A stretch of DNA of 51,692 nt. It comes from Candidatus Woesearchaeota archaeon (GTDB taxonomy: Archaea > Nanobdellota > Nanobdellia > SCGC-AAA011-G17 > GW2011-AR17). Positions 17,180-51,230 of this stretch are shown piece by piece; the first letter of the stretch is position 1, and every line of letters starts with the position of its first letter. Under the pieces are notes generated by a model that was not told the DNA's origin, searched no databases, and was given only the letters and a program-made list of their open reading frames with translations. Made by a program: the position numbers and the translations under genes. The stretch covers positions 1 to 51,692 of the forward strand of contig JAFCFS010000004.1 of NCBI GenBank assembly GCA_017608525.1, given 5' to 3'.

Positions 17180-18658
<1,479 letters not shown>

Positions 18659-18698
18659 AATTTTTTTATGTAAGTGGCTATGGCTTAATTTTTTTTAT

Positions 18699-18804
18699 GG
18701 GCCCGTAGCTCAGCCTGGTAGAGCATCGCCCTTGCAAGGCGGAGGCCTCGGGTTCAAAAATAAGTTTAGCGTTGCTAAACTTATTGAACGTCCCGACGGG
18801 TCCA
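18699..18804 (+). tRNA. tRNA-Ala (anticodon UGC) with a 32-nt intron in the T-loop
   Basis: The acceptor GGGCCCG/CGGGTCC includes G3:U70. The anticodon arm is TCGCC-CTTGCAA-GGCGG. The T stem TCGGG/CCCGA is separated by 39 nt instead of 7. The total is 106 nt = 74 + 32. Confidence 0.85.
18759..18790 (+). other. Predicted non-canonical tRNA intron (T-loop position) in tRNA-Ala
   Basis: The segment AATAAGTTTAGCGTTGCTAAACTTATTGAACG carries a 10-12 bp hairpin (TAAGTTTAGC/GCTAAACTTA). The flanking GTTCAA/TTGAAC pairing with a 3-nt AAA bulge suggests a relaxed bulge-helix-bulge. I chose boundaries that restore a TTCAAAT loop; they could shift by 1-2 nt. Confidence 0.6.
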
Positions 18805-18914
18805 TTTATGTTAAATTAAAAAACTCAAAGAATAGCTGCGGCTCTCTAAATGAATATTTGAGGGCTAAGGATACTCATGTTTATCATGAGTATCGTGCAT
18901 AGGCCATAGTTGAA

Positions 18915-21858
<2,944 letters not shown>

Positions 21859-21877
21859 TTCAACTATGGCCTATGCA

Positions 21878-35977: not shown

Positions 35978-36100
35978 TCCCCGCGGCCGGATTCGAACCA
36001 GCGACCTTCCGGGTCCAGCTGTCCATTTGTCATTCACAGCTGGTTGCTTGGTCCAAATGGAATCTACAGCCGGATGCTCTAACCACTGAGCTACGCGGGG
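35978..36100 (-). tRNA. tRNA-Tyr (anticodon GUA) with a 50-nt anticodon-loop intron
   Basis: The acceptor CCCCGCG/CGCGGGG has C1:G72, the archaeal Tyr identity pair. The anticodon stem TCCGG/CCGGA is separated by 57 nt that start with CTGTAGA. The T arm is GCTGG-TTCGAAT-CCGGC. The total is 123 nt = 73 + 50. Confidence 0.85.
36014..36063 (-). other. Predicted intron of tRNA-Tyr (position 37/38, or 38/39)
   Basis: The segment is ATTCCATTTGGACCAAGCAACCAGCTGTGAATGACAAATGGACAGCTGGA. Two interleaved 8-bp complementarities are TCCATTTG/CAAATGGA and CCAGCTGT/ACAGCTGG. Confidence 0.6.
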
Positions 36101-36145: not shown

Positions 36146-37111
36146 TTAAATAAGTTTACCTTTACAAATTAATACACAATCTTCAAGATTTTGCTTTCTT
36201 TTTGCTATATAATTTTCCATTTCAATATAGGTATTCTTTGAATCAATAAAACATCCCTCGCCGCATACTTCGTTTAACCTACCAATTACATTCTTTGTTG
36301 CATAAAAATTATCATTTCCATTTACATTAGCAGCATTAACCACACAATGTTTGGCCATATAAAAATTGCCATCTCCTTCAATTTCCTCAATTGTTACTGC
36401 CAAATTCTCTGCCATTGTAAAGTTATAATTCCCACCAAGCTTTTTTCCTACTACAATTCCTTTATTAAGTAAAACACCAAGCTCAAAAGAATTGATGTAA
36501 TCTGAAATCAAGAAGGCATTTTTCGAATATGCTAAAAAACATTTTCCTTCTAAAAATTTTACATCTATGAAACAATTCTCTGTTGCAGCAAAATTAGATT
36601 CTCCACTAATCTTTTCGCAACTAACAATAATATTTTTTGATCCCCAAAATAAGTTAGAACCACAAAATTCGTCTGCTAAAAAAACCACTGCATCATTACA
36701 TTTTAAGGAGATTCCAAAACCATCAATTTCTATCTTTCCAAACTTCCTTAAGTCAAAAAATCTGTATCCATTTTCATAACAAACTTTTAATAAAGAAGAT
36801 ATTGCAAGACCAATATCATAGTTAGTAATACTATATTCTTTTCTTTTTGAGAAATTGATATACTCCTCTATAATTTTAGGTGTAATCTTTTTGTTTCTTA
36901 GAAACTTTGTGTACTCTTCAATATAATTTTCAAATCTTTTTAAATTCGGAAACAATTTGTTTTTTTCTATTCTATTTTTTTCAAAAAATCCGATAATTTC
37001 ATCAATACAGCCCTGTTCTGTTTCGACAATTATTGGTTTTTTCTCTAGAGAGGGCTTTTCAACATTTTTAAAAATTTTTTCCAGCGTTATTTTTTCTTCT
37101 TCCTCTGGCAT
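36146..37111 (-). CDS. Hypothetical protein: N-terminal alpha domain plus about 8 tandem 19-residue beta-solenoid-like repeats
   Basis: Repeats with G-x-x-N-F-x(4)-N periodicity are GSNLFWGSKN, GESNFAATEN, GGNYNFTMAEN, GDGNFYMAKH, GNDNFYATKN and GEGCFIDSKN. It lies downstream of kal on the same strand. The start is uncertain (37111 or 37141). Confidence 0.5.
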   Translation of the reverse strand: MPEEEEKITLEKIFKNVEKPSLEKKPIIVETEQGCIDEIIGFFEKNRIEKNKLFPNLKRFENYIEEYTKFLRNKKITPKIIEEYINFSKRKEYSITNYDIGLAISSLLKVCYENGYRFFDLRKFGKIEIDGFGISLKCNDAVVFLADEFCGSNLFWGSKNIIVSCEKISGESNFAATENCFIDVKFLEGKCFLAYSKNAFLISDYINSFELGVLLNKGIVVGKKLGGNYNFTMAENLAVTIEEIEGDGNFYMAKHCVVNAANVNGNDNFYATKNVIGRLNEVCGEGCFIDSKNTYIEMENYIAKRKQNLEDCVLICKGKLI

Positions 37112-37491
37112 TCTTTTGGAGTAACACAGACTCCTTCGCACTTTGCAACGAGAACTTTTTTTTCAAGGGCATCAAATGCAGATGGTTGATTCGGTATTTT
37201 TGCATTTGTTATGATTTTATACACTTCAAATTCCATATGTCTTGATGTATTCCCTACTTTAGTAATTCTTCCATAAACTTCCAAATAATCACCACCATAA
37301 ACAGGCTTTAAGTATTCTGTTTTTCTAGCCCTAAAAAGTCCTTCATCTCCATCATACTCTATCAAAAGTCTTGTTGCAGCATCGCCTATCAACTGATCTA
37401 TTCTACTTCCATCAACTAAATTTCCAGCGTAATGTGCTTCGTTAAATGCAATCCTTTGAACAAGCAAAAGCTTAAGTTTTTTCTTTCCCAT
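37087..37491 (-). CDS. kal: Hotdog-fold protein, probable 3-aminobutyryl-CoA ammonia-lyase
   Basis: It is about 134 aa from ATG 37491. The segment AHYAGNLVDGSRIDQLIGDAATRLLIEYDGDEGLF...YLKPVYGGDYLEVYGRITKVGNTS matches my memory of Kal and a hotdog fold. It lies immediately downstream of kce. Confidence 0.65.
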   Translation of the reverse strand: MGKKKLKLLLVQRIAFNEAHYAGNLVDGSRIDQLIGDAATRLLIEYDGDEGLFRARKTEYLKPVYGGDYLEVYGRITKVGNTSRHMEFEVYKIITNAKIPNQPSAFDALEKKVLVAKCEGVCVTPKECQRKKKK

Positions 37492-38308
37492 TTTCCAACC
37501 CCATGATTTTTCTTGCTTCATCCGGTGTTGCAACCTCTCTTCCATATTCTTTTGCTAGTCTAAAAATTCTTTTAACAAGTTCGTAACTTCCTTTTGCCAA
37601 TCTTCCTTTTGAATAATAAATATTATCTTCTAATCCAGTTCTTACGTGCCCTCCCATTATCAATGCACCAATATTTATTTTTAATTGATTTTTTCCAATT
37701 CCACTTGCAGTCCAGACAGAATTTTTCGGAAGTAAATCAACTATATGTATAAGTTGTTTTAAAGAAGCAGGCATGCCACCAAAAACTCCGAAGACGAGAT
37801 TATATAAGTAGGGCTTCTTGACCAATTTTTTCTTTATTAAATATTTCGATTGCTCTATCCCAGATGTATCAAAAATTTCAAATTCAGCTTTAACACCTTC
37901 CTTTTTCATTATTTTTGCAAATTCCACCATTGTTTCCAAATCATTAACAAATATTTCTTCCCCAAAATTCATTGTTCCTATATCAAGAGTTGCTATTTCG
38001 GGCTTTAGATAAACTGGTTGGATTCTTTCTTCAATAGACATTCCTATTGCTCCTCCTGTTGAAACATTAATTATTGGTTTTTCTTTGCAGACAGAATTTA
38101 TTGCACTTATTGCTTCTTTGAAAATTTCTATGTCTTGTGTTGGTTCTCCATTATCTTTTCTTACATGCAAATGAATTACTGATGCACCATTTTCCACACA
38201 CTTTTTTGCTTCATTTGCTATTTCTTCAATAGTGTACGGAATATATTTTGTTTGTTCTTTGAAAATTTCAGCTCCACAAATTGCCGCAGTTATAATTAAT
38301 TTTTCCAT
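37472..38308 (-). CDS. kce: 3-keto-5-aminohexanoate cleavage enzyme (BKACE/DUF849 family)
   Basis: The protein is 278 aa. It has the N-terminal LIITAAICGAE and the HLH zinc motif in VIHLHVRKDNGEPT, a TIM-barrel length and the family-typical GHVRTGLEDN. Confidence 0.85.
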   Translation of the reverse strand: MEKLIITAAICGAEIFKEQTKYIPYTIEEIANEAKKCVENGASVIHLHVRKDNGEPTQDIEIFKEAISAINSVCKEKPIINVSTGGAIGMSIEERIQPVYLKPEIATLDIGTMNFGEEIFVNDLETMVEFAKIMKKEGVKAEFEIFDTSGIEQSKYLIKKKLVKKPYLYNLVFGVFGGMPASLKQLIHIVDLLPKNSVWTASGIGKNQLKINIGALIMGGHVRTGLEDNIYYSKGRLAKGSYELVKRIFRLAKEYGREVATPDEARKIMGLENGKEKT

Positions 38309-38343
38309 GCCACATAATTATCTTGGAAAATGATTTATAAATT

Positions 38344-39249
38344 TTACTTAGAAACCTTCATTTCGTATTTTATAACAAAATAGTTTGAAAGTAAAATTAG
38401 AATTCCACCAATTATTATGTTTGTGGTTAAAGGTTGATTTAGGAAAAATGCAGCAATTAATGATGCACACACAGGTTCAAGCAATAAAATAATTCCACTT
38501 GTTGAAGCAGAAACGTTTTCTAGACCTTTATAAAGGCATAGATAAGGAATTAGGCTGGATACGATGGCATAAATAACCAAATAAAACCAAATGTTCCCGT
38601 AAAAAAAATTGAAAGTTAAATTTGTTTTAAAAGCAGAACGAGTTAAAAGATAGAAGATTAATATGAAACTGCAGTTAAAAAAGCAATAAAAAAATGTTGT
38701 TAATATAGGAGGGTGTTTTTCTAATCCATTTAATCTACCATAAAGAAGCCAAGCTCCCATAGCCATTGCACCTATAAGCGAAATAGATAATCCTAAGAGA
38801 TTAAACTTTTTTAAATTTGTTGGCCCTACCAAAATAGTTGCGCCTAACAAAACAATAAAGATAGAAAAAATTTTTGTTTTTGTTACACTCTGTTTAAGCA
38901 CAGCCTTTTCTAATAAAATTGCCCACAAAGGCTGTGTGTAAATAAGAAGAATAACTATTGCAATAGGAATTCCTAACTCTATTGGGATAAGCATTGCTAG
39001 CCTTACGATGCCTCCAAATAAACTCAAGAATAAAAAATATAGCAGCATCCTTTTAGAAAATCTAATTCTCTCTTTTATAATTAAAATTATTGTGTAAGGG
39101 AGAAGAAGAATAGTCGCTATGATTAATGGAAAGATTGCTACTCCATAAGCAGATAAACCTTTGTCCATCAAGAATTTTCCACCAGTTGTGAGTGTTCCAA
39201 AGAGGATTCCTGTTAAGATTACGTAAAAATAATGAATTTTTTTCATCAC
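38344..39249 (-). CDS. DMT-superfamily (EamA-like) transporter, about 10 TM segments
   Basis: The protein is 301 aa and very hydrophobic, with a two-fold internal repeat architecture typical of EamA. Confidence 0.7.
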   Translation of the reverse strand: MMKKIHYFYVILTGILFGTLTTGGKFLMDKGLSAYGVAIFPLIIATILLLPYTIILIIKERIRFSKRMLLYFLFLSLFGGIVRLAMLIPIELGIPIAIVILLIYTQPLWAILLEKAVLKQSVTKTKIFSIFIVLLGATILVGPTNLKKFNLLGLSISLIGAMAMGAWLLYGRLNGLEKHPPILTTFFYCFFNCSFILIFYLLTRSAFKTNLTFNFFYGNIWFYLVIYAIVSSLIPYLCLYKGLENVSASTSGIILLLEPVCASLIAAFFLNQPLTTNIIIGGILILLSNYFVIKYEMKVSK

Positions 39250-39306
39250 TAAGTAATTTTCTCAGAAAGTTTTTTAAAATTTCGAATTTCTCTAAATTTT
39301 AGAAAA

Positions 39307-40317
39307 ATGAAGTATGGTTGCCATAGAGTAATAAAACCAAAAGGAGTTTTTCCTCAAGCTGCTTATAAACTTGATAATACACCAAAAGCTTACGATGATG
39401 AAATTCTTATCCAAGTTGAAACCTTGAATATAGATTCGGCAAGTTTTAAGCAAATTAAAGATGAAGTTGGGGAGAAAGGTATAGCAAAAAGAATCATGGA
39501 AATTGTTGAAGAAAGAGGAAAAATGCACAACCCAGTAACGAATTCTGGAGGAATGCTAATTGGGAAAATAAAAGAAATTGGAAAAAGTTTAGAAGGAAAA
39601 ATAGATGCAAAGGTTGGTGATAGGATCGCTACATTAGTATCTTTGACTCTTACACCATTAAAATTGTACAGAATTAAAAAAATTAAAGGTGAGCAGATTG
39701 ATGTCGATGCATATGCCATATTATTTGAGAGTAGCATATTTGCAAAACTTCCTGAAGACATTGATGCTAAAGTTGCATTGGCTGCTTTAGATGTGGCAGG
39801 TGCAGCGCCTTTAGTTGGAAAGCTTGTTAAAGAAGGAGATACAGTTTTGATTTTAGGTGCCGGAAAATCAGGAATGCTGTGTACATATGAAGCCAGAAAA
39901 AGAACAAAGAATGGAAAGGTAATTGTTATGACAAGATCTAAAAAAAGTGCTGGTAGGATTAAATCTTTGGGTTATGCTGATTATGTTTTCAGAGCTGATG
40001 CAACAAATCCTTTAGAAGTTTTAGATAAAATTGAAAAAGTAACAAAAGGTGAATTATGCGATGTTGTTATAAATGCCGTTAATGCCTCTAATACAGAAAT
40101 GGCGAGTATAGTTTCGGCAAAGGATGGAGGAAAGATATGCTTTTTTTCAATGGCAACAAGCTTTCAAAAAGCAGCATTAGGGGCTGAAGGAATAGGAAAG
40201 GATGTTTATATGTTGATTGGTAATGGTTATTCAAAGGGGCATGCCGAGTATACATTAAATATACTAAGGGAAAGCAAACCATTAATGAAAGTTTTTAAGA
40301 AACTATACGGAAATTAA
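39307..40317 (+). CDS. kdd: L-erythro-3,5-diaminohexanoate dehydrogenase
   Basis: The N-terminus is GCHRVIKPKGVFPQAAYKLDN and the Rossmann motif is ILGAGKSGML. The protein is 336 aa and sits next to kamA. Confidence 0.8.
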   Translation: MKYGCHRVIKPKGVFPQAAYKLDNTPKAYDDEILIQVETLNIDSASFKQIKDEVGEKGIAKRIMEIVEERGKMHNPVTNSGGMLIGKIKEIGKSLEGKIDAKVGDRIATLVSLTLTPLKLYRIKKIKGEQIDVDAYAILFESSIFAKLPEDIDAKVALAALDVAGAAPLVGKLVKEGDTVLILGAGKSGMLCTYEARKRTKNGKVIVMTRSKKSAGRIKSLGYADYVFRADATNPLEVLDKIEKVTKGELCDVVINAVNASNTEMASIVSAKDGGKICFFSMATSFQKAALGAEGIGKDVYMLIGNGYSKGHAEYTLNILRESKPLMKVFKKLYGN

Positions 40318-40325
40318 TTTTAAAT

Positions 40326-41507
40326 TTGTTGAAAGAGGTGGTTTTATTGAGACCTTGGAAAGAATGGGGAGTGACTAGAAAAGAATGGAATAGTTGGAAA
40401 TGGCAAATTGAAAATAGAATAACATCACTTGAAAAATTGGAGCAGCATGTTAATTTAACAGAAAACGAGAAAATTGGTGTTAGTGAAGTTTTAAAAAAAT
40501 TCAGGATGGCGATTACCCCATATTACGCTTCTCTTATTGACCCCTATGATGAAAATTGTCCAATAAGGCTACAGGCAATTCCAAGGAAAGAAGAAACGCT
40601 GATTTCTAAATTTGATTTGAAGGACCCCTTAGGAGAGGTTAGAGACTCAAAAAACGAATGCATAGTGCATAGGTATCCTGATAGAGTTTTGTTTTTAGTA
40701 ACCGATAAATGTGGCATGTATTGCAGACATTGTACTAGGAGAAGGATGGTTGGACAAACAGACGCCCATAAAAGTGAGAAAGCAATAAAAGAAGGAATAA
40801 AATACATTAAAAGGAATGAAAAAATAAAAGATGTTCTGATTTCTGGTGGAGACCCTTTTGTGATGGAAAATGATGAACTGGAGGAAATAATCGAGGATGT
40901 TTATAAAATACCACATGTAGAAATAATAAGGGTGGGCACAAGAACTCCAGTCACATTACCACAAAGAATTACAAGAAAATTGACTAGGATGTTAAGAAAA
41001 TATCATCCCCTATATGTGAATACGCATTTCAACCATCCGAAAGAATTTACCCCTGATTCAGAAAGGGCTGTTAAAAGGTTAGTCGATGCTGGCATACCAG
41101 TTGGAAATCAAACTGTTCTTTTAAGAAGGGTGAACGATTGTAAAAATGTAATGAGAGAATTGGTTTATAAATTAATCAAAAATAGAATTAGGCCCTATTA
41201 TATATATCAATGCGATTTATCAGAGGGGATAGAGCATTTCAGAACCAAAGTTGACGTAGGGATAGAAATAATTGAATCACTGAGAGGACATATTTCAGGC
41301 TTGGCTATTCCAACTTATGTTATAGATGCTCCAGGTGGCGGTGGAAAAATACCAATAACGCCAAATTATCTGCTTACTAAAAAAGATGGCAAAGTTATAA
41401 TAAGAAACTATAAGTGGGAAATTGCTGAATATCCTGAACCAAATTACGAAAAACTTAAATGTAATTGCGAATTCTGCAGAAAAGAGAATGCTGAAGAAGA
41501 GAATTGA
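40326..41507 (+). CDS. kamA: Lysine 2,3-aminomutase (radical SAM, PLP)
   Basis: The motifs are WNSWKWQIENRI, CGMYCRHCTRRR (CxxxCxxC), SGGDP, YIYQCDLSEGIEHFRT, VIDAPGGGGK (PLP Lys) and the C-terminal CNCEFC zinc motif. There is no ATG at the N-terminus, so the start is probably TTG/GTG between 40326 and 40347. Confidence 0.9.
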   Translation: MLKEVVLLRPWKEWGVTRKEWNSWKWQIENRITSLEKLEQHVNLTENEKIGVSEVLKKFRMAITPYYASLIDPYDENCPIRLQAIPRKEETLISKFDLKDPLGEVRDSKNECIVHRYPDRVLFLVTDKCGMYCRHCTRRRMVGQTDAHKSEKAIKEGIKYIKRNEKIKDVLISGGDPFVMENDELEEIIEDVYKIPHVEIIRVGTRTPVTLPQRITRKLTRMLRKYHPLYVNTHFNHPKEFTPDSERAVKRLVDAGIPVGNQTVLLRRVNDCKNVMRELVYKLIKNRIRPYYIYQCDLSEGIEHFRTKVDVGIEIIESLRGHISGLAIPTYVIDAPGGGGKIPITPNYLLTKKDGKVIIRNYKWEIAEYPEPNYEKLKCNCEFCRKENAEEEN

Positions 41508-42462
41508 CAAACACAAAATAATTTCTTTTATAGGTATTGCTAAAAATGTTGGGAAAACTACCGCACTATCCAGCTTTCTCAAAAATTATAAAAATCTTGG
41601 TGTAACGACAATTGGGATAGATGGGGATGAAATATGCTCTTTAACTGGAAAGGAAAAACAAACAATTTATCTTCCTGCAGGCACATTTTTTACCACAACA
41701 GATGTAGAAGTAAGAAAAAGAGATATTTCAGTTAAAATAGTTGAAAACACAGATATAATCACACCATATGGTAATATTATAATAGCAAAAACTGAAATAC
41801 CGGACTATGCTCAAATTTATGGCTGTGGTTCAATAGCAGATACGGAAAAAGTGATTTTTAAAATGATTTCTCGCGGAGCAAAAAAGGTACTTATAGACGG
41901 GAGTTTTAATAGAGTATCCCATACAAAAATTTCAGCAGGAACAATTTTGGTGGCAGGCGTGATAGAAGGAAAAGATTACGAGTACGCAATAAATGAAACA
42001 AAAAAAATGGTGGAATTCATGGGTTTTAAAAAATCAAATTTAAGGCCGAAAAAAACACCCTGCATATACAAAAATGGAAAAGAAATAGGTTTAGGAATAG
42101 ACTCTATACTTGGAAAAGAAGATAAAGTTATTGAGAAATTAGATAACGTAACAACACACGTCGTTTTTTCAGGAGCATTTACTTCGAATACTTTAAAAAA
42201 ATTTATTAAATTTGGATTCGATTTTAAGAAAATTAAAATTGTGTTAAATAATTGTTGCGATTGTCTTTTAAGCTATAAAGAATATCGATTGCTAAAAGAG
42301 CTAGGAGGCAAAATTGAGGTGCTAAACAAAACAGATATCTGCGGCATCGCTGTTAACTCATTTTCTTTTTCAAATTATATCAACCCAAAGAAAATATTTA
42401 AAATGTTTAAAAAAGAATTTCCTTCCATATATGTTTTTGATGTCATGTTAAAATGTTCATAG
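41488..42462 (+). CDS. P-loop protein; candidate small subunit of a lysine 5,6-aminomutase reactivase (KamB-like)
   Basis: It has a Walker-A-like IGIAKNVGKTTAL near the N-terminus. It lies between kamA and a MutS-like ATPase, as in bacterial lysine-fermentation clusters as I remember them. I prefer start ATG 41488, which overlaps kamA by 20 nt. Confidence 0.5.
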   Translation: MLKKRIDKHKIISFIGIAKNVGKTTALSSFLKNYKNLGVTTIGIDGDEICSLTGKEKQTIYLPAGTFFTTTDVEVRKRDISVKIVENTDIITPYGNIIIAKTEIPDYAQIYGCGSIADTEKVIFKMISRGAKKVLIDGSFNRVSHTKISAGTILVAGVIEGKDYEYAINETKKMVEFMGFKKSNLRPKKTPCIYKNGKEIGLGIDSILGKEDKVIEKLDNVTTHVVFSGAFTSNTLKKFIKFGFDFKKIKIVLNNCCDCLLSYKEYRLLKELGGKIEVLNKTDICGIAVNSFSFSNYINPKKIFKMFKKEFPSIYVFDVMLKCS

Positions 42463-44018
42463 ACGATAACACAGAAAAGGCATTGGGTTTGGATAAGGTA
42501 TGGAAATCCTTGCCAATTTCTGGACAGTTGGGTAGAGAGTATTTGGAAAATTTGGAATACAAAAAAGAAAAGAAAAGGCTTAATTTGGAATATTCTGAAC
42601 TTTCGAAAATGATTAATGTACTTAAAAAAGAGGAGGCAAAAATACTATGCACAAAGCAATTATTAAAAAATTTGAAAACACTCAAGAATACATTTACAAA
42701 ATTGAGAAATGACGAAGTGCTGGATGAAATTGATGTGTTTGAATTGAAATACTTTTTATACCATTATAATAAAATAGCAGAACTTTGGCATTTTAAAATG
42801 ATTAAAAACTTATGGAAAATTTTAGATCCGAAAAATCTCCAAACTTACGATTTTTATATATATGATGAGTATTCAAAGAAAATTAGTAGAATAAGGAAAC
42901 GTATACTGAATCTTAAAAAATTGAGAGAGAAAATTGTGAAAAAAATATGTAAAGAAATTGGTATCGAAGCAAGCGAAAAAATTGTTGTTGATAAAGAAGA
43001 AAAAAAATTAATTAGAAAATTATTAGCTAATAAAAATTTCAAAAAAGATAAAGAAACATTTTCCAGCATTGTTTTTTCAGTTAAAAATGAAGAAATTGAT
43101 GAAGTGGATAGAGAGATTGAGATGCTTATTCTCGAGAAAAATAAAGAGAAGGAAGTAGTATTAAAGAACCTCTCAGAGAAAATTAAAAAGCACTTTAAAG
43201 AAATTATGGCAGCTTATGAAAAATTGAAAAAATTAGATTTTATGATAGCAAAAGCAACTTTTTGTTTAGAAAATCAACTAAAAAAGCCGAAGATAACAAA
43301 CAAAGAAAGATTGGTAATTAAAAAAGGTACACATATCTTTTTAAAAAACGAGCTTTCAAAATTGGGTTTAAATTATACCCCAATAGATATAGAAATTAAT
43401 AAGAATATATGCGTCATTTACGGTTCTAATATGTCTGGGAAAACACAAGCTTTAAGAACAATTGGATTTATCGTTGGGCTTGCGCAGGCAGGATTTTTTG
43501 TACCTGCTGAAATATTTGAATTTAAACCCTTTGACTTTATTTTGTTTAGCATAGGCGAAAATCTTGATGAAATAGGTTATAGTACTTTTGCACAAGAAAT
43601 TTTAAGAATAAATTCTGTTTTTAAAAGGAAAAAAGAATTTGGCTTGGCTTTAATTGATGAGATAGCAAGAGGAACAAATCATTTTGAAGCTCAAGCTTTA
43701 TCACTTGCGCTTATTGACGAATTTAAAAATTTGAATTCTTTTGTTCTTATGACAACACATCTTCCTGGCTTGTTAAATCTAAAAAATGTGGAATACTATA
43801 AAACAGGTGGTTTGATTAAAGAAAAAATTGAAAAACTAAAAAAACTAAGATTGGAAAACAAAATGGAAAATCTAAAATTAATAAATAATTTAATGAACTA
43901 TAGATTGGAAAAGGAAGGTGATTTTACTTTCGACGCAATTAATGTTGCTCTGCTTTTGGGGGTGGATAAAAAAATAATAGAGAAAGCTAAAAATTATATG
44001 AAAAATGAGAATAGATAG
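42453..44018 (+). CDS. MutS domain V-only ATPase; candidate lysine 5,6-aminomutase reactivase ATPase (KamC-like)
   Basis: The motifs are the MutS-type Walker A GSNMSGKTQALRTIG and the Walker B LIDEIARGTNHFEAQALSLAL, followed by TTH. The N-terminal half is a coiled coil with no mismatch-binding domain. Confidence 0.6.
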   Translation: MFIDDNTEKALGLDKVWKSLPISGQLGREYLENLEYKKEKKRLNLEYSELSKMINVLKKEEAKILCTKQLLKNLKTLKNTFTKLRNDEVLDEIDVFELKYFLYHYNKIAELWHFKMIKNLWKILDPKNLQTYDFYIYDEYSKKISRIRKRILNLKKLREKIVKKICKEIGIEASEKIVVDKEEKKLIRKLLANKNFKKDKETFSSIVFSVKNEEIDEVDREIEMLILEKNKEKEVVLKNLSEKIKKHFKEIMAAYEKLKKLDFMIAKATFCLENQLKKPKITNKERLVIKKGTHIFLKNELSKLGLNYTPIDIEINKNICVIYGSNMSGKTQALRTIGFIVGLAQAGFFVPAEIFEFKPFDFILFSIGENLDEIGYSTFAQEILRINSVFKRKKEFGLALIDEIARGTNHFEAQALSLALIDEFKNLNSFVLMTTHLPGLLNLKNVEYYKTGGLIKEKIEKLKKLRLENKMENLKLINNLMNYRLEKEGDFTFDAINVALLLGVDKKIIEKAKNYMKNENR

Positions 44019-45558
44019 AAAAAAAGTTGAAGCATGCAGAAAAGAAGCAAAAAAAATTGCGCTTAAACTAAAGGAGTTCATAGATCTTCATTCAACAACA
44101 ACAATAGAGAGGAGTATTGTTAGACTTTTTGGTGTTGATGGCGTAGATAAAAATGGGATTCCTTTGCCAAATGTTGTTGTTGATCATGTTAAATCTTTTG
44201 GAGGGCTTGCTAGAGGTGTTTCTTATTGGTTAGGAAATGCCTCTATAGCGCTGAATAAAAATCCACAGGAAATAGCTGAATTGATTGCAGAGAAAAAAAT
44301 AAACCTATCAAAATTGAAAAAGAACGATGATGAAGAAATTAAAAAAGTTATAGACAGATGGGCTGATGATGCTATTAAAAGAATAGTGAAAGTAAGGAAG
44401 GAGAGAGAAAGATTAATAAAGAAATTGGGCGAGGGAGAGAAACCTTTGCTTTACGCCATAGTTGCAACAGGAAATATTTATCATGATATAATTCAGGCAA
44501 AATCAGCTGTTAAAAATGGAGCTGATATAATTGCAGTGATTAGGAGTACAGCACAAAGTTTGTTGGATTATGTTCCTTACGGTGCGACAACAGAAGGTTA
44601 TGGTGGGACATATGCTACTCAAGAAAATTTCAGAATAATGAGGAAAGCATTGGATGAAGTTGGAGAAGAAGTTGGAAGATACATAAGGCTTGTTAACTAT
44701 GCATCTGGGTTATGTATGCCTGAAATTTCTGTAATGGGAGCTTTTGAAAGACTTGATATTATGTTAAATGACTCTATGTACGGAATTCTATTTAGGGACA
44801 TAAACATGAAGAGAACCTTCACTGATCAGCATTTTTCTAGAATAGTAAATGCTGTAGGAGGCATTATAATAAACACTGGGGAGGATAATTATTTGACAAC
44901 ATCAGATGCCATAGAACATGCGCACACAGTTTTAACATCTCAATTTATAAATGAACAACTTGCTTTACTCTCCCTACTTCCGAAAAAACAAATAGGTTTG
45001 GGGCATGCTTTTGAAATTAATCCGGACATAAAAAATGGTTTGCTTTACGAAATAGCTCACGCACTTTTAGTTAGGGAAATATTTAAAGAAGAACCAATAA
45101 AATATATGCCACCAACAAGATTTATGACAGGGAATATTTTTAAGGGCCATGCGATGGATACAATGTTTAATCTAGTTTCAGTTTTAACAAGACAGCACAT
45201 TCATTTAGTCGGAATTTTGACAGAAGCAATACACACACCTTTTATGCAAGACAGGCATATTTCTTTGGAAACTGCAAAATATGTGATGAATAATGCAAGA
45301 GATTTAGCAAAGGAAATAGAATTTAAGAAAAACGGTTTTATAGAAAGAAGGGCCAACAAAGTTTTGGACGAAGCATATAGATTATTGAGAAAAATAAGTA
45401 AAGTTGGATTAATGAGGGCCATAGAAGCAGGAATATTTGCAAACATTGCTAGACCAATTGATGGAGGGAAAGGCCTAGATGGGGTTTTTGTAAAAGATCA
45501 AGATTATTACAATCCATTTTTAAAAAAATTTGAGAAGGCAATGAAAAATGAAATTTGA
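44005..45558 (+). CDS. kamD: Beta-lysine (D-lysine) 5,6-aminomutase alpha subunit
   Basis: The protein is 517 aa with a TIM-barrel-sized subunit. It lies directly upstream of, and overlaps, the B12-binding beta subunit. Its sequence is consistent with KamD as I remember it. Confidence 0.8.
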   Translation: MRIDRKKVEACRKEAKKIALKLKEFIDLHSTTTIERSIVRLFGVDGVDKNGIPLPNVVVDHVKSFGGLARGVSYWLGNASIALNKNPQEIAELIAEKKINLSKLKKNDDEEIKKVIDRWADDAIKRIVKVRKERERLIKKLGEGEKPLLYAIVATGNIYHDIIQAKSAVKNGADIIAVIRSTAQSLLDYVPYGATTEGYGGTYATQENFRIMRKALDEVGEEVGRYIRLVNYASGLCMPEISVMGAFERLDIMLNDSMYGILFRDINMKRTFTDQHFSRIVNAVGGIIINTGEDNYLTTSDAIEHAHTVLTSQFINEQLALLSLLPKKQIGLGHAFEINPDIKNGLLYEIAHALLVREIFKEEPIKYMPPTRFMTGNIFKGHAMDTMFNLVSVLTRQHIHLVGILTEAIHTPFMQDRHISLETAKYVMNNARDLAKEIEFKKNGFIERRANKVLDEAYRLLRKISKVGLMRAIEAGIFANIARPIDGGKGLDGVFVKDQDYYNPFLKKFEKAMKNEI

Positions 45559-46291
45559 TTTGAAAAAAATAAAGTCTTATGGAGATTGCTATGATGGATC
45601 TGTTCAGCTTAGTTTTACATTGCCAATAAAATGTTCAGGAAAAGCAAAAGAAGCTGCTAAAAAATACGTTGAAAAAATGGGTTTCAAAGATGTTATGGTG
45701 CATTATATGAAAGATATTGGTGAGAATTTTACTTTTTTCATTGTTTACGGTAAAGCGCAACATACAATAGATGTTACAAAAATTAAAGTTGAAGAAGCTA
45801 AATTCAAAAAAATGGATATGTATAAGATTGATGATTTAATAAAGAAAAAAATTGGAAGGAAGCTTGTGGTTGTTGGGGCATGTATTGAAAGTGATGCTCA
45901 CTCTATTGGGATAGATGCAATTATGAATATGAAAGGTTTTCACGGTAATTATGGTCTGGAAAGGTACAAATGGATAAAAGCATACAACATGGGTGCTCAA
46001 GTTCCGTGTGTTGAACTAGTTAAAAAAATAAGAGAGGTTAATGCAGATATAGTTCTTGTTTCCCAGGTTGTTACACAAAGAAACATTCATATAAAAAATT
46101 TAACAAAGCTCGTCGAATTGCTTGAAGCTGAAAATTTGAGAGATAAAATAATTTTGATATGTGGAGGGCCAAGGATAACACACAAACTTGCATTAGAATT
46201 AGGATACGATGCTGGATTTGGACCCGGTACTGTAGCAAGTGACGTTGCCTCTTTCTTTGTGCAGAAGTTTATTGAAAAACATGAGTTGTAG
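45548..46291 (+). CDS. kamE: Beta-lysine (D-lysine) 5,6-aminomutase beta subunit (B12- and PLP-binding)
   Basis: The DxHxxG cobalamin motif is ESDAHSIG. A Lys lies exactly 11 residues after the His (HSIGIDAIMNMK), matching the His133/Lys144 spacing of characterised KamE. Confidence 0.88.
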   Translation: MKFDLKKIKSYGDCYDGSVQLSFTLPIKCSGKAKEAAKKYVEKMGFKDVMVHYMKDIGENFTFFIVYGKAQHTIDVTKIKVEEAKFKKMDMYKIDDLIKKKIGRKLVVVGACIESDAHSIGIDAIMNMKGFHGNYGLERYKWIKAYNMGAQVPCVELVKKIREVNADIVLVSQVVTQRNIHIKNLTKLVELLEAENLRDKIILICGGPRITHKLALELGYDAGFGPGTVASDVASFFVQKFIEKHEL

Positions 46292-46330
46292 GAAAAAATA
46301 TTTAAATTTCCTTTAAATTTCTTTTTTTTG

Positions 46331-48124
46331 ATGTTGAAGGAATTAATTAAGGAAACAAAAGAGGAATTGCTAAACGAGCTTGTTAAAATAGATGAAAATA
46401 TAACTAAAATTTTAAGAGACTCACCTAACACAGAATCTGCTAGAAATTCTTTGATTGAATACCTGAAGAAATTAGAAGAGGATTATTTTGGAGACAAAAC
46501 AAATAAAGCTCATATACTGGAGAGAATGAATGCTAAAGAATGCATAAAAGTGTTGAGGAATATTATAAGGAGAGAAAATGAATTACTAACCGGGTTTTCA
46601 GCACTTGAGAAATTGATAAAGCTATTTAAAGGTAAAGGCTTAGAGGAAGTAAGTAAAGGATTTATTTGCGAATTTATTTTTCTTTTTAAAGGTATTAATT
46701 GCAATTCAGGAATTTTTATTTATGGTGAACAGAATTTTAATGAGGAAGGAAGAAAAGCAGCCATTAAGAGATCTCAAGCTCTTGATAAATATTCAAGTTT
46801 AATAACAAAATACTTCAAAAGGTATAAAACTGGATGCGATCCCGATATTGTAAGAAAAACAAATGAACTGAAAAAAGAAATTCTTCAATTTTTTGGTGGC
46901 AAAGAAGAGGATTGGTTGGATTATAAATGGCATATGAAAAATATTATTATGGATTTAGATACACTTTCATCGCTTATTAAATTAGAAAAGGATGAAATTG
47001 AGAGTTTAAAATATGCTCAAGAAAACAACATTCCATTCCAAATTACACCACACTATCTTTCTCTGTTTAACAAAAACGGAAGATGTGATTATGATAGGGT
47101 TCTTAGGGCACAAGTAATCCCAAGTCTATATTATTGTAAAAATGTTGTAAAGAATAGAGAAGAAAAAATTTCTATGGATTTTATGGGTGAGCATTCTACA
47201 AGCCCTATTGATTGCATAACAAGAAGATACCCACAAATACTTATCCTAAAACCTTATGATGCTTGTCCCCAAATATGTGTATATTGCCAGAGAAATTGGG
47301 AAGTAAAAAGCATAAAATCGGCAAGAATAACAAAGAAGAAAGTAGAAAAAGCTATTTCATGGATTAAGGAGAATAAAAACATTACCGAGGTTCTTGTTAC
47401 TGGAGGGGATCCATTTTCCTTAAGTAACGAATATATCGATTGGTTAATGGGGGAATTGGCAAAAATAGAACATGTTGAAAGAATTAGAATTGGAACAAGA
47501 ACATTGGTAACTCTTCCGTATAGGATTAATGAAGGCATGATTAAGATATTGAAGAAATATCATAAGCTAGGAAAAAGGGAAGTTTGTATTGTAACGCATT
47601 TCGAACATCCGATAGAAATTTGCCCACCTGTATTGGAAGCGATAAAAAAGATTAAAGAACTTGGAATCTCTATATATAACCAACAAGTTTTTACATATTA
47701 CAATAGTAGAAAATTTGAAACATGCTTTTTGAGAAGAACTTTAAAACTTTATGGCATAGATCCATATTACGCATTTAATACAAAAGGAAAAGAAGAAACT
47801 ATGGACTTTAGAGTTCCAATTGCGAGAATAGAACAAGAAAGAAAAGAGGAAGCTAGACTTTTGCCAGGAGTAGTGAGAACTGATGAACCTGTTTTTAATG
47901 TCCCTAAGCTTGGAAAATCCCATTTGAGGGCTTGGCAAGATCACGAAGTAATAATGATACTCGCTGATGGAAAAAGAGTTTACAGATTCCTACCTTGGGA
48001 ATCAAAATTTGCTATTGTCGATGATTATTTATATACTGATGTTTCAATTTATGATTACTTAAAAAGGTTAGATAGAGATGGGGAAAATATTGAAGATTAT
48101 AAATCGATATGGTACTATTTCTAA
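46331..48124 (+). CDS. KamA-family radical SAM aminomutase paralogue with a roughly 175-aa N-terminal extension; glutamate 2,3-aminomutase-like substrate residues
   Basis: The motifs are CPQICVYC (CxxxCxxC), TGGDP and IGTRT. When aligned to the neighbouring KamA, QCDLS becomes NTKGK (Asp to Lys) and VIDAPGGGGK becomes VFNVPKLGK (Asp to Asn, with the PLP Lys kept). The C-terminal CxCxxC motif is absent. Confidence 0.6.
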   Translation: MLKELIKETKEELLNELVKIDENITKILRDSPNTESARNSLIEYLKKLEEDYFGDKTNKAHILERMNAKECIKVLRNIIRRENELLTGFSALEKLIKLFKGKGLEEVSKGFICEFIFLFKGINCNSGIFIYGEQNFNEEGRKAAIKRSQALDKYSSLITKYFKRYKTGCDPDIVRKTNELKKEILQFFGGKEEDWLDYKWHMKNIIMDLDTLSSLIKLEKDEIESLKYAQENNIPFQITPHYLSLFNKNGRCDYDRVLRAQVIPSLYYCKNVVKNREEKISMDFMGEHSTSPIDCITRRYPQILILKPYDACPQICVYCQRNWEVKSIKSARITKKKVEKAISWIKENKNITEVLVTGGDPFSLSNEYIDWLMGELAKIEHVERIRIGTRTLVTLPYRINEGMIKILKKYHKLGKREVCIVTHFEHPIEICPPVLEAIKKIKELGISIYNQQVFTYYNSRKFETCFLRRTLKLYGIDPYYAFNTKGKEETMDFRVPIARIEQERKEEARLLPGVVRTDEPVFNVPKLGKSHLRAWQDHEVIMILADGKRVYRFLPWESKFAIVDDYLYTDVSIYDYLKRLDRDGENIEDYKSIWYYF

Positions 48125-48173
48125 ATCTTTATCTAAATTCAAAAATTTTATAAATTGGATATAAGTTCATATT

Positions 48174-49403
48174 TTGGAAATGAAGAAAACAGTGGAGGAT
48201 TTTATAAAACAGGCAGAAAGATACGGTGCTAAAAATTATGCCCCTTTGCCTGTTGTTTTGACAAAAGGTGATGGAATTTATTTGTACGATATTAATGGTA
48301 AAAAATATTTCGATATGTTGAGCGCTTATTCTGCAGTCAACCAGGGTCACAACAATAAAAAGCTGATAAAAGCAGCAATAAAGCAACTCAAAAGGTTGTA
48401 TCTTACGTCAAGAGCATTTCATAACGATAAAATGGGAGATTTTTTACAAAAAATTGCAGAAATAACAGGATACGAAAAAGTAATCCCAATGAACACAGGT
48501 GCGGAAGGTGTTGAAACAGCAATAAAAATAATGAGAAAATACGCATATGAGAAAAAGGGAATTAAAAAGGATTGTGGGGAAATAATAGTAGCAGAAAATA
48601 ATTTTCATGGGAGAACTACAACAATTGTCGGTTTTTCAACAGACAAAACAACAAAGGAAGGATTTGGTCCCTATACCCCAGGATTTAAAATAATAAAATA
48701 TAACGATATTGGAGAACTGGAAAAAGCAATTAATGAAAATACTATTGGATATTTAGTTGAACCAATTCAGGGGGAAGCTGGAGTGATAATACCTGATGAT
48801 GATTATTTCAGGAAAGTTAGGGAAATATGTGATAAATACGGAATTCTTCTTGCATTTGATGAAATTCAAACAGGCTTAGGCAGAACTGGAAAATTGTTTT
48901 GTTTCCAGCATTATGGAATCAAACCAGATATTTTAATTTTAGGTAAAGCATTGAGCGGAGGACTTTACCCTATTTCATGTGTAGCTACTTCTGCAGAAAT
49001 CATGAATGTTTTGACACCAGGAACGCATGGAAGTACATTTGGTGGTAATCCATTAGCAAGTGCTATTGGAATCGCATCTTTAGAGTACATAATAAAAAAC
49101 AAACTCCCTGAAAATGCAGAAAAGCTTGGAAAGTATTTTATTGAAAAATTAAAAAAGGAAATTATGGACGATGATATAAAAGAAATAAGAGGAAAAGGTC
49201 TATTAATTGCTGTGGAAATGAAAAAACCTGTAGCAAGGAAAGTTTGCATTGAATTGATGAGGGTTGGAATTCTTGCTAAAGACACACATGAAAAAACAAT
49301 AAGATTTGCTCCTCCTTTGATAATAAAGAAAAAACAAATAGATAAAGCAGTTATGAAAATCAAAAAAGGATTTGAGAATTTTAGAAAATGTTCTTGTACA
49401 TAG
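48174..49403 (+). CDS. rocD: Ornithine aminotransferase (class III PLP aminotransferase)
   Basis: The motifs are NYAPLPVVLTKGDGIYLYD, LSAYSAVNQGH, DEIQTGLGRTG and GKALSGG (PLP Lys). Confidence 0.85.
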   Translation: MEMKKTVEDFIKQAERYGAKNYAPLPVVLTKGDGIYLYDINGKKYFDMLSAYSAVNQGHNNKKLIKAAIKQLKRLYLTSRAFHNDKMGDFLQKIAEITGYEKVIPMNTGAEGVETAIKIMRKYAYEKKGIKKDCGEIIVAENNFHGRTTTIVGFSTDKTTKEGFGPYTPGFKIIKYNDIGELEKAINENTIGYLVEPIQGEAGVIIPDDDYFRKVREICDKYGILLAFDEIQTGLGRTGKLFCFQHYGIKPDILILGKALSGGLYPISCVATSAEIMNVLTPGTHGSTFGGNPLASAIGIASLEYIIKNKLPENAEKLGKYFIEKLKKEIMDDDIKEIRGKGLLIAVEMKKPVARKVCIELMRVGILAKDTHEKTIRFAPPLIIKKKQIDKAVMKIKKGFENFRKCSCT

Positions 49404-49621
49404 TGAGAAAGAAAAAGGAAAAAATTAAAAATGGGGTTTATAGGGTAGAGTACTTTCTATCAAAAGAAAAATTGACACAAAAACAAATTGATTTTTATGA
49501 AGCTACGAAAAATTGCAAAATAGTACAGGAGATTAAATTGCCCAATAAAAAACCGGTTGGAAAAAAGTTGGAATTAATACTTAAAGATCCTTTATTTGAG
49601 GACATACCATACTCATATTAA
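49388..49621 (+). CDS. Small hypothetical protein (77 aa)
   Basis: This ORF fills the rocD-rocA gap and overlaps the rocD end by 16 nt. It is K-rich with no recognisable motif, so it may not be real. Confidence 0.3.
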   Translation: MFLYIVRKKKEKIKNGVYRVEYFLSKEKLTQKQIDFYEATKNCKIVQEIKLPNKKPVGKKLELILKDPLFEDIPYSY

Positions 49622-49637
49622 TATTGGAGGTGTTGAG

Positions 49638-51230
49638 ATGAGAGGCTATTACAAATTCAAAAATGAACCCCTTCCGGATTTTACAAACAAGAATGAAAGA
49701 AAGAAAATGAAAAAAGCAATTGAGAAAGTTAGAAAAGAATTTGGAACACTATACTCAATAGTAATCGGCGGCATACCTTTCGAGAGTGACAAAACTTTTT
49801 ATTCGATAAATCCAAACAAACCTTCAGAAATTATAGGCGAATTTTTTGTGGCAAACAAAGATCATATAGATACTGCAGTTGATGTTGCAAAGGATGCATT
49901 AAAAAAATGGAGAAATAAGAGTTTGGAAGAGAGAGCAGAGCACTTATTTAGACTTGCGAAAGTTTTGAAAAAGAAGAAATACGAAATCTCTGCATTAATG
50001 GTTTTGGAGGTTGGGAAGAACTGGTTGGAAGCAGTAGCTGACATAAATGAACTAATCGATTTTTGCAATTTTTACGGAAAGGAAGCTGTAAGACTAAGCA
50101 AAACAAAGCCAAGGGATATGGAAACAGAAGAAATCGATTTTAGATATGAGCCAATAGGCGTTGGGGCCATAATTGCTCCTTGGAATTTTCCTTCTGCAAT
50201 TCTTGGAGGGATGACAACAGCAGCAATAGTTATGGGAAATGCTGTTTTGATGAAACCGGCAAGTGACGCGCCAGCTACTGCATATGCTTTTTTCAAGGCC
50301 CTAAATGAAGCAGGCATACCCCTCGGAGTTGTTAACTATATCACGGGAAGTGGTGGAATAACAGGAAATGCAATACTTGAGCATGATGAAATAAAATTTA
50401 TCGCATTCACTGGATCAAGAGACGTTGGTAAAAAAATTTATGAAAAAATAGCAAAGCCGGGAAAAAGGCACTTTAAAGTTGTTCCACTTTTGGAAATGGG
50501 TGGTAAGGACGGAATTATTGTTGCCGAAGATGCTGATCTAAATTTAGCATTAGAAGAAGTAATAAAATCAGCTTTTGGATATCAGGGACAAAAATGTTCG
50601 GCTTGCTCAAGATTAATTGTAGAGAAAAGCGTATACGACAAATTTTTAGAAATGCTTGTTGATGCAACAAAGAAAATCAAAGTAGGTCCTGTAGAATTTT
50701 ACGAAAATTATATGGGTGCTGTAATAAATAAAAAGGCTGAAGAAAAAATTCTGAGATACATTGAGATTGGGAAGAAAGAAGGCAAATTATTGACAGGAGG
50801 AAAAAAGGTTAAAGATTTGGAAGGCTATGTAATAGAGCCGACAATATTTGCGGATGTTGATCCAGATGCAAGAATAGCACAAGAAGAGATATTTGGGCCT
50901 GTTCTGGCAGTGATAAAAGCTGAAAACTTTGAAGATGCTATAAGAATAATGAACAATACCGAATATGGTTTAACAGCTTCAGTCTTTACAACAGACAAGA
51001 AAAAGATAGAAAAAGCTGCAAATGAAATAGATGTAGGAAACTTATACTTCAATAGAAAATGTACAGGGGCATTGGTTTATTACCATCCGTTTGGTGGGAG
51101 AAACATGTCTGGAATTTATAAAAAGGCAGGAGGATTTGATACATTAGTCAATTTTTCAGCACCAAAATCGATAGGAATTAGGAAAGGAACATACAAGAAT
51201 TCAGAAAAACAGAGAAACATTTATAAATAA
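49638..51230 (+). CDS. rocA: 1-pyrroline-5-carboxylate (glutamate-5-semialdehyde) dehydrogenase
   Basis: It has the RocA-like N-terminus FKNEPLPDFTN and the ALDH motifs APWNFP, LEMGGKD (catalytic Glu), GQKCSACSR (catalytic Cys) and EEIFGPV. The start is ATG 49638, behind GGAGGTG. Confidence 0.85.
   Translation: MRGYYKFKNEPLPDFTNKNERKKMKKAIEKVRKEFGTLYSIVIGGIPFESDKTFYSINPNKPSEIIGEFFVANKDHIDTAVDVAKDALKKWRNKSLEERAEHLFRLAKVLKKKKYEISALMVLEVGKNWLEAVADINELIDFCNFYGKEAVRLSKTKPRDMETEEIDFRYEPIGVGAIIAPWNFPSAILGGMTTAAIVMGNAVLMKPASDAPATAYAFFKALNEAGIPLGVVNYITGSGGITGNAILEHDEIKFIAFTGSRDVGKKIYEKIAKPGKRHFKVVPLLEMGGKDGIIVAEDADLNLALEEVIKSAFGYQGQKCSACSRLIVEKSVYDKFLEMLVDATKKIKVGPVEFYENYMGAVINKKAEEKILRYIEIGKKEGKLLTGGKKVKDLEGYVIEPTIFADVDPDARIAQEEIFGPVLAVIKAENFEDAIRIMNNTEYGLTASVFTTDKKKIEKAANEIDVGNLYFNRKCTGALVYYHPFGGRNMSGIYKKAGGFDTLVNFSAPKSIGIRKGTYKNSEKQRNIYK

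Follow-up and report, generated by a model that had tools for sequence, protein, structure and literature searches.

The window analyzed here, the complete 51,692-nucleotide stretch of contig JAFCFS010000004.1 from a Candidatus Woesearchaeota archaeon, encodes a long-form radical S-adenosylmethionine (SAM) aminomutase of the KamA family that depends on pyridoxal 5'-phosphate (PLP). Judging from its substrate-position residues and the gene neighborhoods of its relatives, it is probably an archaeal-type glutamate 2,3-aminomutase whose product, β-glutamate, likely serves as a compatible solute when cells face salt or cation stress. The protein fits best in a long-form, methanogen-type family of about 600 residues and less well in the equivalog typified by the glutamate 2,3-aminomutase (Eam) of Clostridioides difficile.

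A sequence-only reading of the window had described a 598-aa open reading frame (ORF) with CPQICVYC, TGGDP and a PLP lysine, no C-terminal CxCxxC motif and roughly 175 residues before the WxDxxW region, and translation bears this out, with about 175-195 extra N-terminal residues. The ATG at 46331 is also the start chosen in the gene call on an independent contig (L087). Exact look-ups of the window aminomutase and of the nearby rocA product found neither sequence on record. The features of the gene, with lysine 2,3-aminomutase (LAM) as the reference for substrate positions, are as follows.

46331..48124, plus strand: long-form KamA-family radical SAM/PLP aminomutase, predicted L-glutamate 2,3-aminomutase; 597 aa from the ATG at 46331, 598 aa from the TTG at 46328.
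46331..46732, plus strand: family-specific, all-helical N-terminal domain, residues ~1-135 (alignment, AlphaFold).
46751..46912, plus strand: helical segment, residues 142-195, common to bacterial Eam-type enzymes and not found in LAM (TIGR04368, hhalign).
46913..47827, plus strand: KamA catalytic core, residues 196-500 (phmmer and Foldseek to 2A5H, codon check).
47264-47287, plus strand: CPQICVYC cluster motif, residues 313-320 (translation check).
Residues 358-362, plus strand: TGGDP, in the catalytic core.
R322 and invariant K488, plus strand: both in the catalytic core (translation check).
47783-47785, plus strand: K486, at the position of LAM Asp293 (translation check).
47828..48121, plus strand: C-terminal region, residues 501-598, a family-specific, Cys-free tail ending in WYYF (MAFFT motif alignment).
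47897-47899, plus strand: N524, at the position of LAM Asp330 (translation check; equivalence by motif alignment).
47915-47917, plus strand: PLP-binding lysine K530 (translation check; assignment by motif alignment).

In the translation, WLDYKW starts at residue 196, and 195 residues precede the WxDxxW region, compared to about 20 in KamA. A C-terminal CxCxxC was sought in the aminomutase translation and none is present, the last cysteine being residue 466, in contrast to the CNCEFC of the KamA encoded 6 kb upstream. Across 22 aligned members of the long-form family, the catalytic set C313, C317, C320, R322, GGD, H424, N451/Q452, K488, N524 and K530 is invariant. The signature C313-C317-C320-R322-K486-K488-N524-K530 is complete in 72 of 82 loci.

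Membership in the KamA family is clear from TIGR00238 (318.2 bits, cut-off 199.2), but the protein lies below every function-level NCBIfam cut-off, including those for LAM (TIGR03820, 203.3 bits against 525.4), arginine aminomutase (148 against 600) and EpmB (128 against 369). A search of 5.8 billion proteins returned 120 full-length matches of 596-637 aa at 57-66% identity. The sources are Methanocella, DPANN archaea (Diapherotrites/Iainarchaeum, Micrarchaeota, Woesearchaeota, Nanoarchaeota) and the bacterial groups Syntrophales, KSB1, Wallbacteria and Chitinispirillaceae. The names of the matches listed are, throughout, just "KamA family radical SAM protein" or "lysine 2,3-aminomutase". A scan with one genome per species found relatives in at least 596 archaeal and bacterial genomes, among them Methanoperedens, Methanolinea, Bacteroidales, Fibrobacter, Lentisphaerota, Gemmatimonadales and Zixibacteria; methanogens in the family include Methanocella, Methanoperedens, Methanolinea and Methanosarcinales. 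When a library clustered at 50% identity is ranked by score, the relatives that match over the full length stand apart at 380-775 bits (36-58% identity); next come conventional KamA proteins at about 130-190 bits, which match residues ~190-500 alone.

The catalytic core shares its fold and cofactor motifs with LAM (KamA/AblA) of Clostridium subterminale (2A5H; Foldseek E 1.6e-18, rmsd 2.9 Å over 318 columns). The long-form protein differs from LAM in its long N-terminal extension, the absence of the CxCxxC zinc site and the replacement of Asp293 and Asp330 by Lys and Asn. The first replacement is well anchored: K486 falls in the column of Asp293 in a gap-free phmmer alignment to 2A5H (residues 192-500), and hhalign gives the same column against both LAM-type and Eam-type profiles. 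N524 takes the Asp330 column when 66 sequences are aligned with MAFFT over the motif V-[FI]-[DN]-[AV]-P...G-K, and lies 38 residues after K486, compared with 37 between D293 and D330 in LAM. The hidden Markov model (HMM), phmmer and hhalign local alignments all stop at residue 500, and the AlphaFold model (mean per-residue confidence, pLDDT, 81.9) falls below pLDDT 50 in the loop 509-536; the N524 equivalence therefore rests on motif and spacing. The Lys486/Asn524 pair put forward by the sequence-only reading is thus upheld, by the 2A5H and profile alignments for the lysine and by the motif alignment for the asparagine.

According to the SFLD paper, all glutamate 2,3-aminomutases conserve this Lys/Asn pair in place of the lysine-binding aspartates; the Eam signature given by the sequence-only reading is therefore documented. 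The best conventional matches of the window protein carry CQR after the third cluster cysteine as well as Lys and Asn in the Asp293 and Asp330 columns. One of these Eam-type matches (P0189) passes TIGR04368 at 693 bits.

Nearest relatives are thus Eam-type, as had been anticipated, but the long-form proteins do not fall within that group. Together with a sister group of 700-830-aa proteins they form a clade of their own in 100 of 100 neighbor-joining (NJ) bootstraps. We conclude from these comparisons that the long-form family is a separate clade whose nearest relatives are bacterial Eam-type enzymes. Profile comparison by hhalign scores the family 529 against an Eam-type profile, starting at residue 142, and 422 against a LAM-type profile, starting at residue 182; position 3 of the TIGR04368 profile likewise aligns to residue 142. 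It follows from these different starting points that about 55 residues of the extension are helices shared with Eam and about 140 are unique. The family thus shares with C. difficile-type Eam (TIGR04368) the Lys/Asn pair at the LAM Asp positions, the CQR motif and the ~55-residue helical segment before the core, and conventional Eam proteins are its nearest relatives by both phmmer and hhalign. It differs in forming a separate clade, in having ~140 more N-terminal residues and a different, Cys-free C-terminal domain, and in having one residue fewer between the Asn and the PLP Lys. In the alignment, the N-terminal extension and the WYYF-ending tail are kept throughout, so that the extension is a hallmark of a very large family and not a peculiarity of this gene.

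The sister group (P0239 and P0250, 706-830 aa) shares the hallmarks of both termini (…EDxxEYxSIW.Y). Its core is interrupted by large insertions, its cluster motif reads CxxLCxSCQR, and its substrate positions hold Lys and Asn. P0239, the member scanned, scores 137 against the KamA family cut-off of 199. CxxxCxxC is missing from some other full-length relatives that retain both the N-terminal domain and the C-terminal tail (P0140, P0141, P0142, P0144, P0147, P0174, P0179, P0180, P0199, P0205 and P0210), and at least P0140, P0141, P0142 and P0144 lack the PLP lysine too. Such proteins are probably non-catalytic paralogs, some of which are fused to long, low-complexity N-terminal regions.

The N-terminal domain (residues 1-135) is predicted by AlphaFold to be a high-confidence helical bundle, with pLDDT mostly above 90 both in the full-length model and when modeled alone. 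The structure prediction proposed earlier thus gave a confident fold, but no fold relative: Foldseek against the PDB returned generic helical bundles with a best E of about 1, and a Pfam scan of the domain found no family. Alignments reveal invariant R39, C72, E83, S91, F112, E115 and G122. Cys72 (46541-46543, in the context NAKECIRVLKN) is conserved in 22 of 22 aligned members, and the domain has no recognizable cofactor motif. This conservation suggests that the invariant residues mark a specific surface. As a guess, the domain might replace the Zn-mediated subunit contact of LAM, or it might be regulatory.

Such a domain would also suit an enzyme that acts not, or not only, on free L-glutamate, with another acidic amino acid or a bound substrate as its target and the N-terminal domain recruiting a partner. 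The invariant polar residues and Cys72 in a domain without known fold relatives fit this idea, as do the separate clade below all curated equivalog cut-offs, the unusually high conservation across domains of life and the variation of position 486 between K, Q and M among subgroups. We consider it unlikely, given that the Lys/Asn pair and CQR are common to proven Eam-type enzymes, that the title of a published study names a methanogen glutamate 2,3-aminomutase that differs from the bacterial enzyme, and that no conserved partner gene appeared in 80 loci. Clustering of 710 neighboring ORFs from 81 loci yielded no conserved partner beyond single lineages.

Variation at position 486 occurs in a Syntrophales/Deltaproteobacteria subgroup, in which the residue is Gln in L010, L012, L015, L036, L046, L047, L059 and L064 and Met in L028 and L029. 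Six of the eight Gln486 loci have, directly upstream, a gene resembling 2,4-diaminopentanoate dehydrogenase, and in five of these six a fused TRAP permease comes before it. Where downstream sequence is available, most of these loci show an M16 peptidase-like gene on that side. The Gln/Met486 subgroup may use another substrate or serve a catabolic function.

A characterized relative appears to exist in methanogens. The title of Tunckanat et al. (2022, Biochemistry 61:1077-1090) presents a methanogen glutamate 2,3-aminomutase as distinct from the bacterial one, and text citing that study refers to an enzyme used in archaea for producing the osmolyte β-glutamate. This enzyme very likely lies in the ~600-aa clade, because no other family in a library of 1.84 billion proteins joins a KamA core to such an N-terminal extension. 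The protein is said to be MmarC7_1783, a putative radical SAM aminomutase extended at its N-terminus by ~160 residues, whose substrate residues reportedly suggested glutamate and whose expression in a methanogen is said to have given β-glutamate. The window protein would have the same architecture as the enzyme so described, with a KamA core, a long N-terminal extension and glutamate-type residues; its gene, differently, sits among amino acid catabolic genes. No Methanococcales protein, such as MmarC7_1783 or MJ0634, was listed in the homolog searches (with the window protein and with the divergent AT-rich P0133), among the 80 genome loci kept, in the cluster look-ups or in a locus-tag text search. 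The claim that the N-terminal extension is undescribed is not supported: the ~600-aa architecture is that of a very large, conserved family, and, going by its title, the 2022 study reports the methanogen enzyme.

The physiological role is suggested by gene neighborhoods in other genomes. These were surveyed in 80 genome loci with flanks of up to 10 kb and in five further contigs from the closest relatives and Methanocella. A gene for MscS adjoins the aminomutase gene in six loci from three phyla (Methanoperedens, Micrarchaeota and Bacteroidota). In three Methanoperedens loci (L031, L049 and L051), MscS-ablA-ablB is directly upstream of the long-form gene; this set is described in the literature as the salt-induced Nε-acetyl-β-lysine operon. 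Methanoperedens would thus carry genes for two different β-amino acid osmolytes side by side, since the long-form gene follows ablA-ablB. TrkH adjoins the aminomutase in two Methanocella genomes. In L065 its immediate neighbor is a Na+/H+ exchanger gene; the closest archaeal relatives, one of them from a Tara Oceans sample, have such a gene two positions upstream. Five loci have a putative ClC-type channel cluster nearby, recognized by the motif GSGGSAGREGP. In L081, a Bacillota locus, the long-form gene is followed by another KamA-type gene (623 aa).

Candidate cation riboswitches are also part of this genetic context. Rfam scans of 45 bacterial loci found nhaA-I RNA candidates in three of three Lentisphaerota loci and in no others, at the following positions.

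L041, 2285-2334: nhaA-I candidate.
L043, 9569-9617 and 13175-13225: nhaA-I candidates.
L065, 3151-3212, 4247-4309 and 7833-7897: nhaA-I candidates.

Each of these loci has one copy on the same strand as the aminomutase gene and 250-430 bp upstream of it. Between the two lies an ORF for a conserved membrane protein of ~110 aa (LRLYWMLFGN...GPATMDD), intact in L041 and L043 and truncated to a 62-aa frame in L065. The three copies in L065 fall within 5 kb, one of them before a second copy of the small membrane protein. Published work describes nhaA-I RNAs as Li+ riboswitches with Na+-sensing variants that regulate genes for cation transport and osmotic stress. Taken together, the neighborhoods favor a function in salt stress, fitting β-glutamate as a compatible solute.

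Several observations weigh against the proposed activity and role. The protein scores 249.1 bits with the Eam equivalog model (TIGR04368), far below its cut-off of 650. The assignment as glutamate-type thus keeps the Lys/Asn pair and the closer match to Eam (529) than to LAM (422), but not equivalog status. The equivalence of N524 with Asp330 comes from a motif and not from a structure, and the proposed link to the Methanococcus maripaludis enzyme goes through the title of the paper and the reported description of that enzyme. Identities of 57-66% across archaea and bacteria, together with the presence of the gene in small DPANN genomes, are more than an osmolyte enzyme obviously needs. Finally, no salt-related gene lies beside the aminomutase in the window, where the neighbors are catabolic (lysine fermentation, rocD and rocA).

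The two genes that follow the aminomutase encode enzymes of ornithine metabolism, and their identities, as given by the sequence-only reading, are confirmed by TIGR01885 and NF002852.

48180..49403, plus strand: rocD, ornithine--oxo-acid aminotransferase (TIGR01885, 534.5 against 378.4; Aminotran_3; ORF listed from the TTG at 48174).
49638..51230, plus strand: rocA/pruA, L-glutamate γ-semialdehyde (Δ1-pyrroline-5-carboxylate, P5C) dehydrogenase (NF002852, 673.4 against 648; Aldedh; ORF listed from the TTG at 49596).

The likely starts are ATG 48180 for rocD and ATG 49638 for rocA, the latter 8 nt after GGAGGTG. Spacers measure 39 bp between kamE (the last gene of the upstream lysine cluster) and the aminomutase gene, 55 bp between the aminomutase gene and rocD and 234 bp between rocD and rocA; TATA-like AT-rich boxes precede the aminomutase gene and rocD. 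A tight operon is made less likely by the 234 bp in front of rocA. As in Bacillus subtilis, RocD and RocA together give glutamate. Their combined action would yield the predicted substrate of the aminomutase, so the chemistry of the proposed set is coherent. The pairing with an aminomutase, unlike the roc genes of B. subtilis, is seen in the window lineage alone. No rocF, rocE or roc regulator is encoded within the window.

It had been proposed that the three enzymes form a module from ornithine to β-glutamate, and the survey does not sustain this. Neither rocD nor rocA occurs within 10 kb of the aminomutase gene in any of the 80 genome loci or in any of the five contigs, which comprise the closest relatives (61-65% identity) and the Methanocella locus. 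Searching the 80 loci by tblastn with the window RocD, RocA, KamD, KamE and Kdd recovered no rocA, kamD, kamE or kdd, and the RocD query found one distant class-III aminotransferase (31% identical). The linkage is therefore not conserved across the aminomutase-bearing genomes surveyed (none of 85 other loci), with the exception of a 99.7%-identical contig (L002) that keeps rocD. The three-gene chain is at best lineage-specific, confined to one archaeal lineage, and does not represent a pathway module of wider conservation.

Upstream of the aminomutase gene lies a cluster for lysine degradation.

37087..46291 (context): lysine-fermentation cluster with hotdog/4HBT, kce (BKACE), EamA-type transporter, kdd, kamA, a family-less ORF, MutS-like ATPase, kamD and kamE.

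The kamA of this cluster is genuine (TIGR03820, 555.7 bits against the cut-off of 525.4). The hotdog protein occupies the position of kal in the lysine-fermentation cluster. No Pfam family matches the ORF at 41422-42462 (346 aa), which follows kamA and precedes the MutS-like gene and whose listed frame shares 86 nt with the kamA end. Its product may be an uncharacterized accessory protein of the lysine 5,6-aminomutase system. The window, with a GC content of ~31%, is otherwise archaeal in content, encoding archaeal 16S and 23S rRNA (17180-21867), GatD/GatE, Mre11/Rad50, ATP-dependent DNA ligase and EF-1α. A complete, bacterial-style lysine-fermentation cluster seems unusual in an archaeon. An Rfam scan of the window detected a 123-nt intron-bearing tRNA at 35978-36100; rRNA and tRNA were the only hits of that scan, with no regulatory RNA near the aminomutase gene. 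An acyl-CoA dehydrogenase and a methionine γ-lyase-type enzyme are encoded in the window as well.

Near-identical strains indicate how stable this arrangement is. The JGI contig L087 is colinear with window positions 42734-46763 at 99.3% identity, including the junction between kamE and the aminomutase gene, which rules out an assembly chimera at this junction. Near the start of its aminomutase gene, L087 repeats 27 bp in tandem, so that KELIKETKE is encoded twice (L087 3598-3680). The ENA contig L002 is 99.7% identical over 2.4 kb and retains rocD downstream of the aminomutase. Its homology starts at window position 46392, which corresponds to codon 22, leaving the ORF 21 codons short (L002 9926-10001), and upstream it carries a PEP-hydrolase-like gene, LarA and, 4 kb away, arginine deiminase instead of kamDE. 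Near-identical strains thus differ in structure at a hot spot that covers the first codons of the aminomutase gene (window 46331-46392). Two assemblies confirm that the gene adjoins the lysine cluster, yet this adjacency is unstable. The β-amino acid island of about 15 kb suggested earlier is not supported: the kamE-aminomutase junction, though real in two assemblies, is absent in L002, where homology breaks off at codon 22.

The same breakpoint bears on whether the aminomutase gene, rocD and rocA are neighbors merely through an accident of rearrangement and are transcribed and used independently, for which we see a little less than an even chance. The break in the 99.7%-identical L002 and the 27-bp duplication at the same place in L087 speak for this, together with the missing linkage in all other loci examined, the 234-bp spacer before rocA and the TATA-like AT-rich boxes before the aminomutase gene and rocD. 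On the other hand, all three genes share one strand, only 55 bp separate the aminomutase gene from rocD, this pair is retained in the rearranged L002, and RocD and RocA would make the predicted aminomutase substrate. Co-regulation of the aminomutase gene with rocD and rocA may follow from this arrangement.

The catabolic surroundings raise the question of whether the enzyme has the same activity in a degradative direction, with RocD and RocA converting arginine or ornithine to glutamate and the aminomutase then opening a fermentation branch by forming β-glutamate. A parallel would be the β-lysine route next door, in which the β-amino acid is converted to a β-keto acid and cleaved thiolytically or by a BKACE-type enzyme. 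That the gene is flanked by a complete lysine-fermentation cluster and by rocD/rocA, all on the same strand, fits such a route. So do the appearance of the organism as an amino acid fermenter, with the acyl-CoA dehydrogenase and methionine γ-lyase-type enzyme in the window, and the arginine deiminase 4 kb upstream in L002. A homolog in the Syntrophales subgroup is moreover preceded by the 2,4-diaminopentanoate-dehydrogenase-like gene and TRAP permease, but that subgroup has Q486 and may thus use another substrate. No β-glutamate dehydrogenase or transaminase and no second BKACE lie near the gene in the window, the linkage to rocD/rocA is found in none of the 85 other loci, and in other genomes the majority of informative contexts consist of ion channels, osmolyte genes and cation riboswitches. 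We therefore regard a catabolic role as decidedly unlikely. It is very unlikely that the archaeal enzyme is the entry step of a β-glutamate fermentation fed through RocD and RocA instead of an osmolyte enzyme, with a related branch in the Q486 Syntrophales that uses the 2,4-diaminopentanoate-dehydrogenase-like enzyme and the TRAP transporter.

Under the preferred reading, that of an active glutamate 2,3-aminomutase making a compatible solute, a [4Fe-4S] cluster on C313, C317 and C320 would cleave SAM to generate a 5'-deoxyadenosyl radical. The substrate would be held as an aldimine on PLP, whose resting lysine is predicted to be K530, while the amino group moves from C2 to C3. R322 would bind the α-carboxylate, and K486, with the invariant K488, and N524 would bind the γ-carboxylate, so that L-glutamate is converted to β-glutamate. 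As in methanococci, the product would most likely be used as a compatible solute against salt or cation stress. RocD and RocA would turn arginine-derived ornithine into glutamate and could feed the aminomutase, through an adjacency that is local to this lineage and not a conserved operon.

The finding opens no new mechanism; its remaining interest lies in the poor annotation of a large family and in its unexplained N-terminal domain. Thousands of archaeal and bacterial proteins of ~600 aa carry generic KamA or LAM names, and NCBIfam has no model for them. If the long-form family consists of β-glutamate synthases, its genes would mark a capacity for osmoadaptation in many uncultured lineages, including DPANN archaea. 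For this archaeon, the gene suggests that an amino acid fermenter can divert arginine-derived glutamate into a metabolically inert solute.

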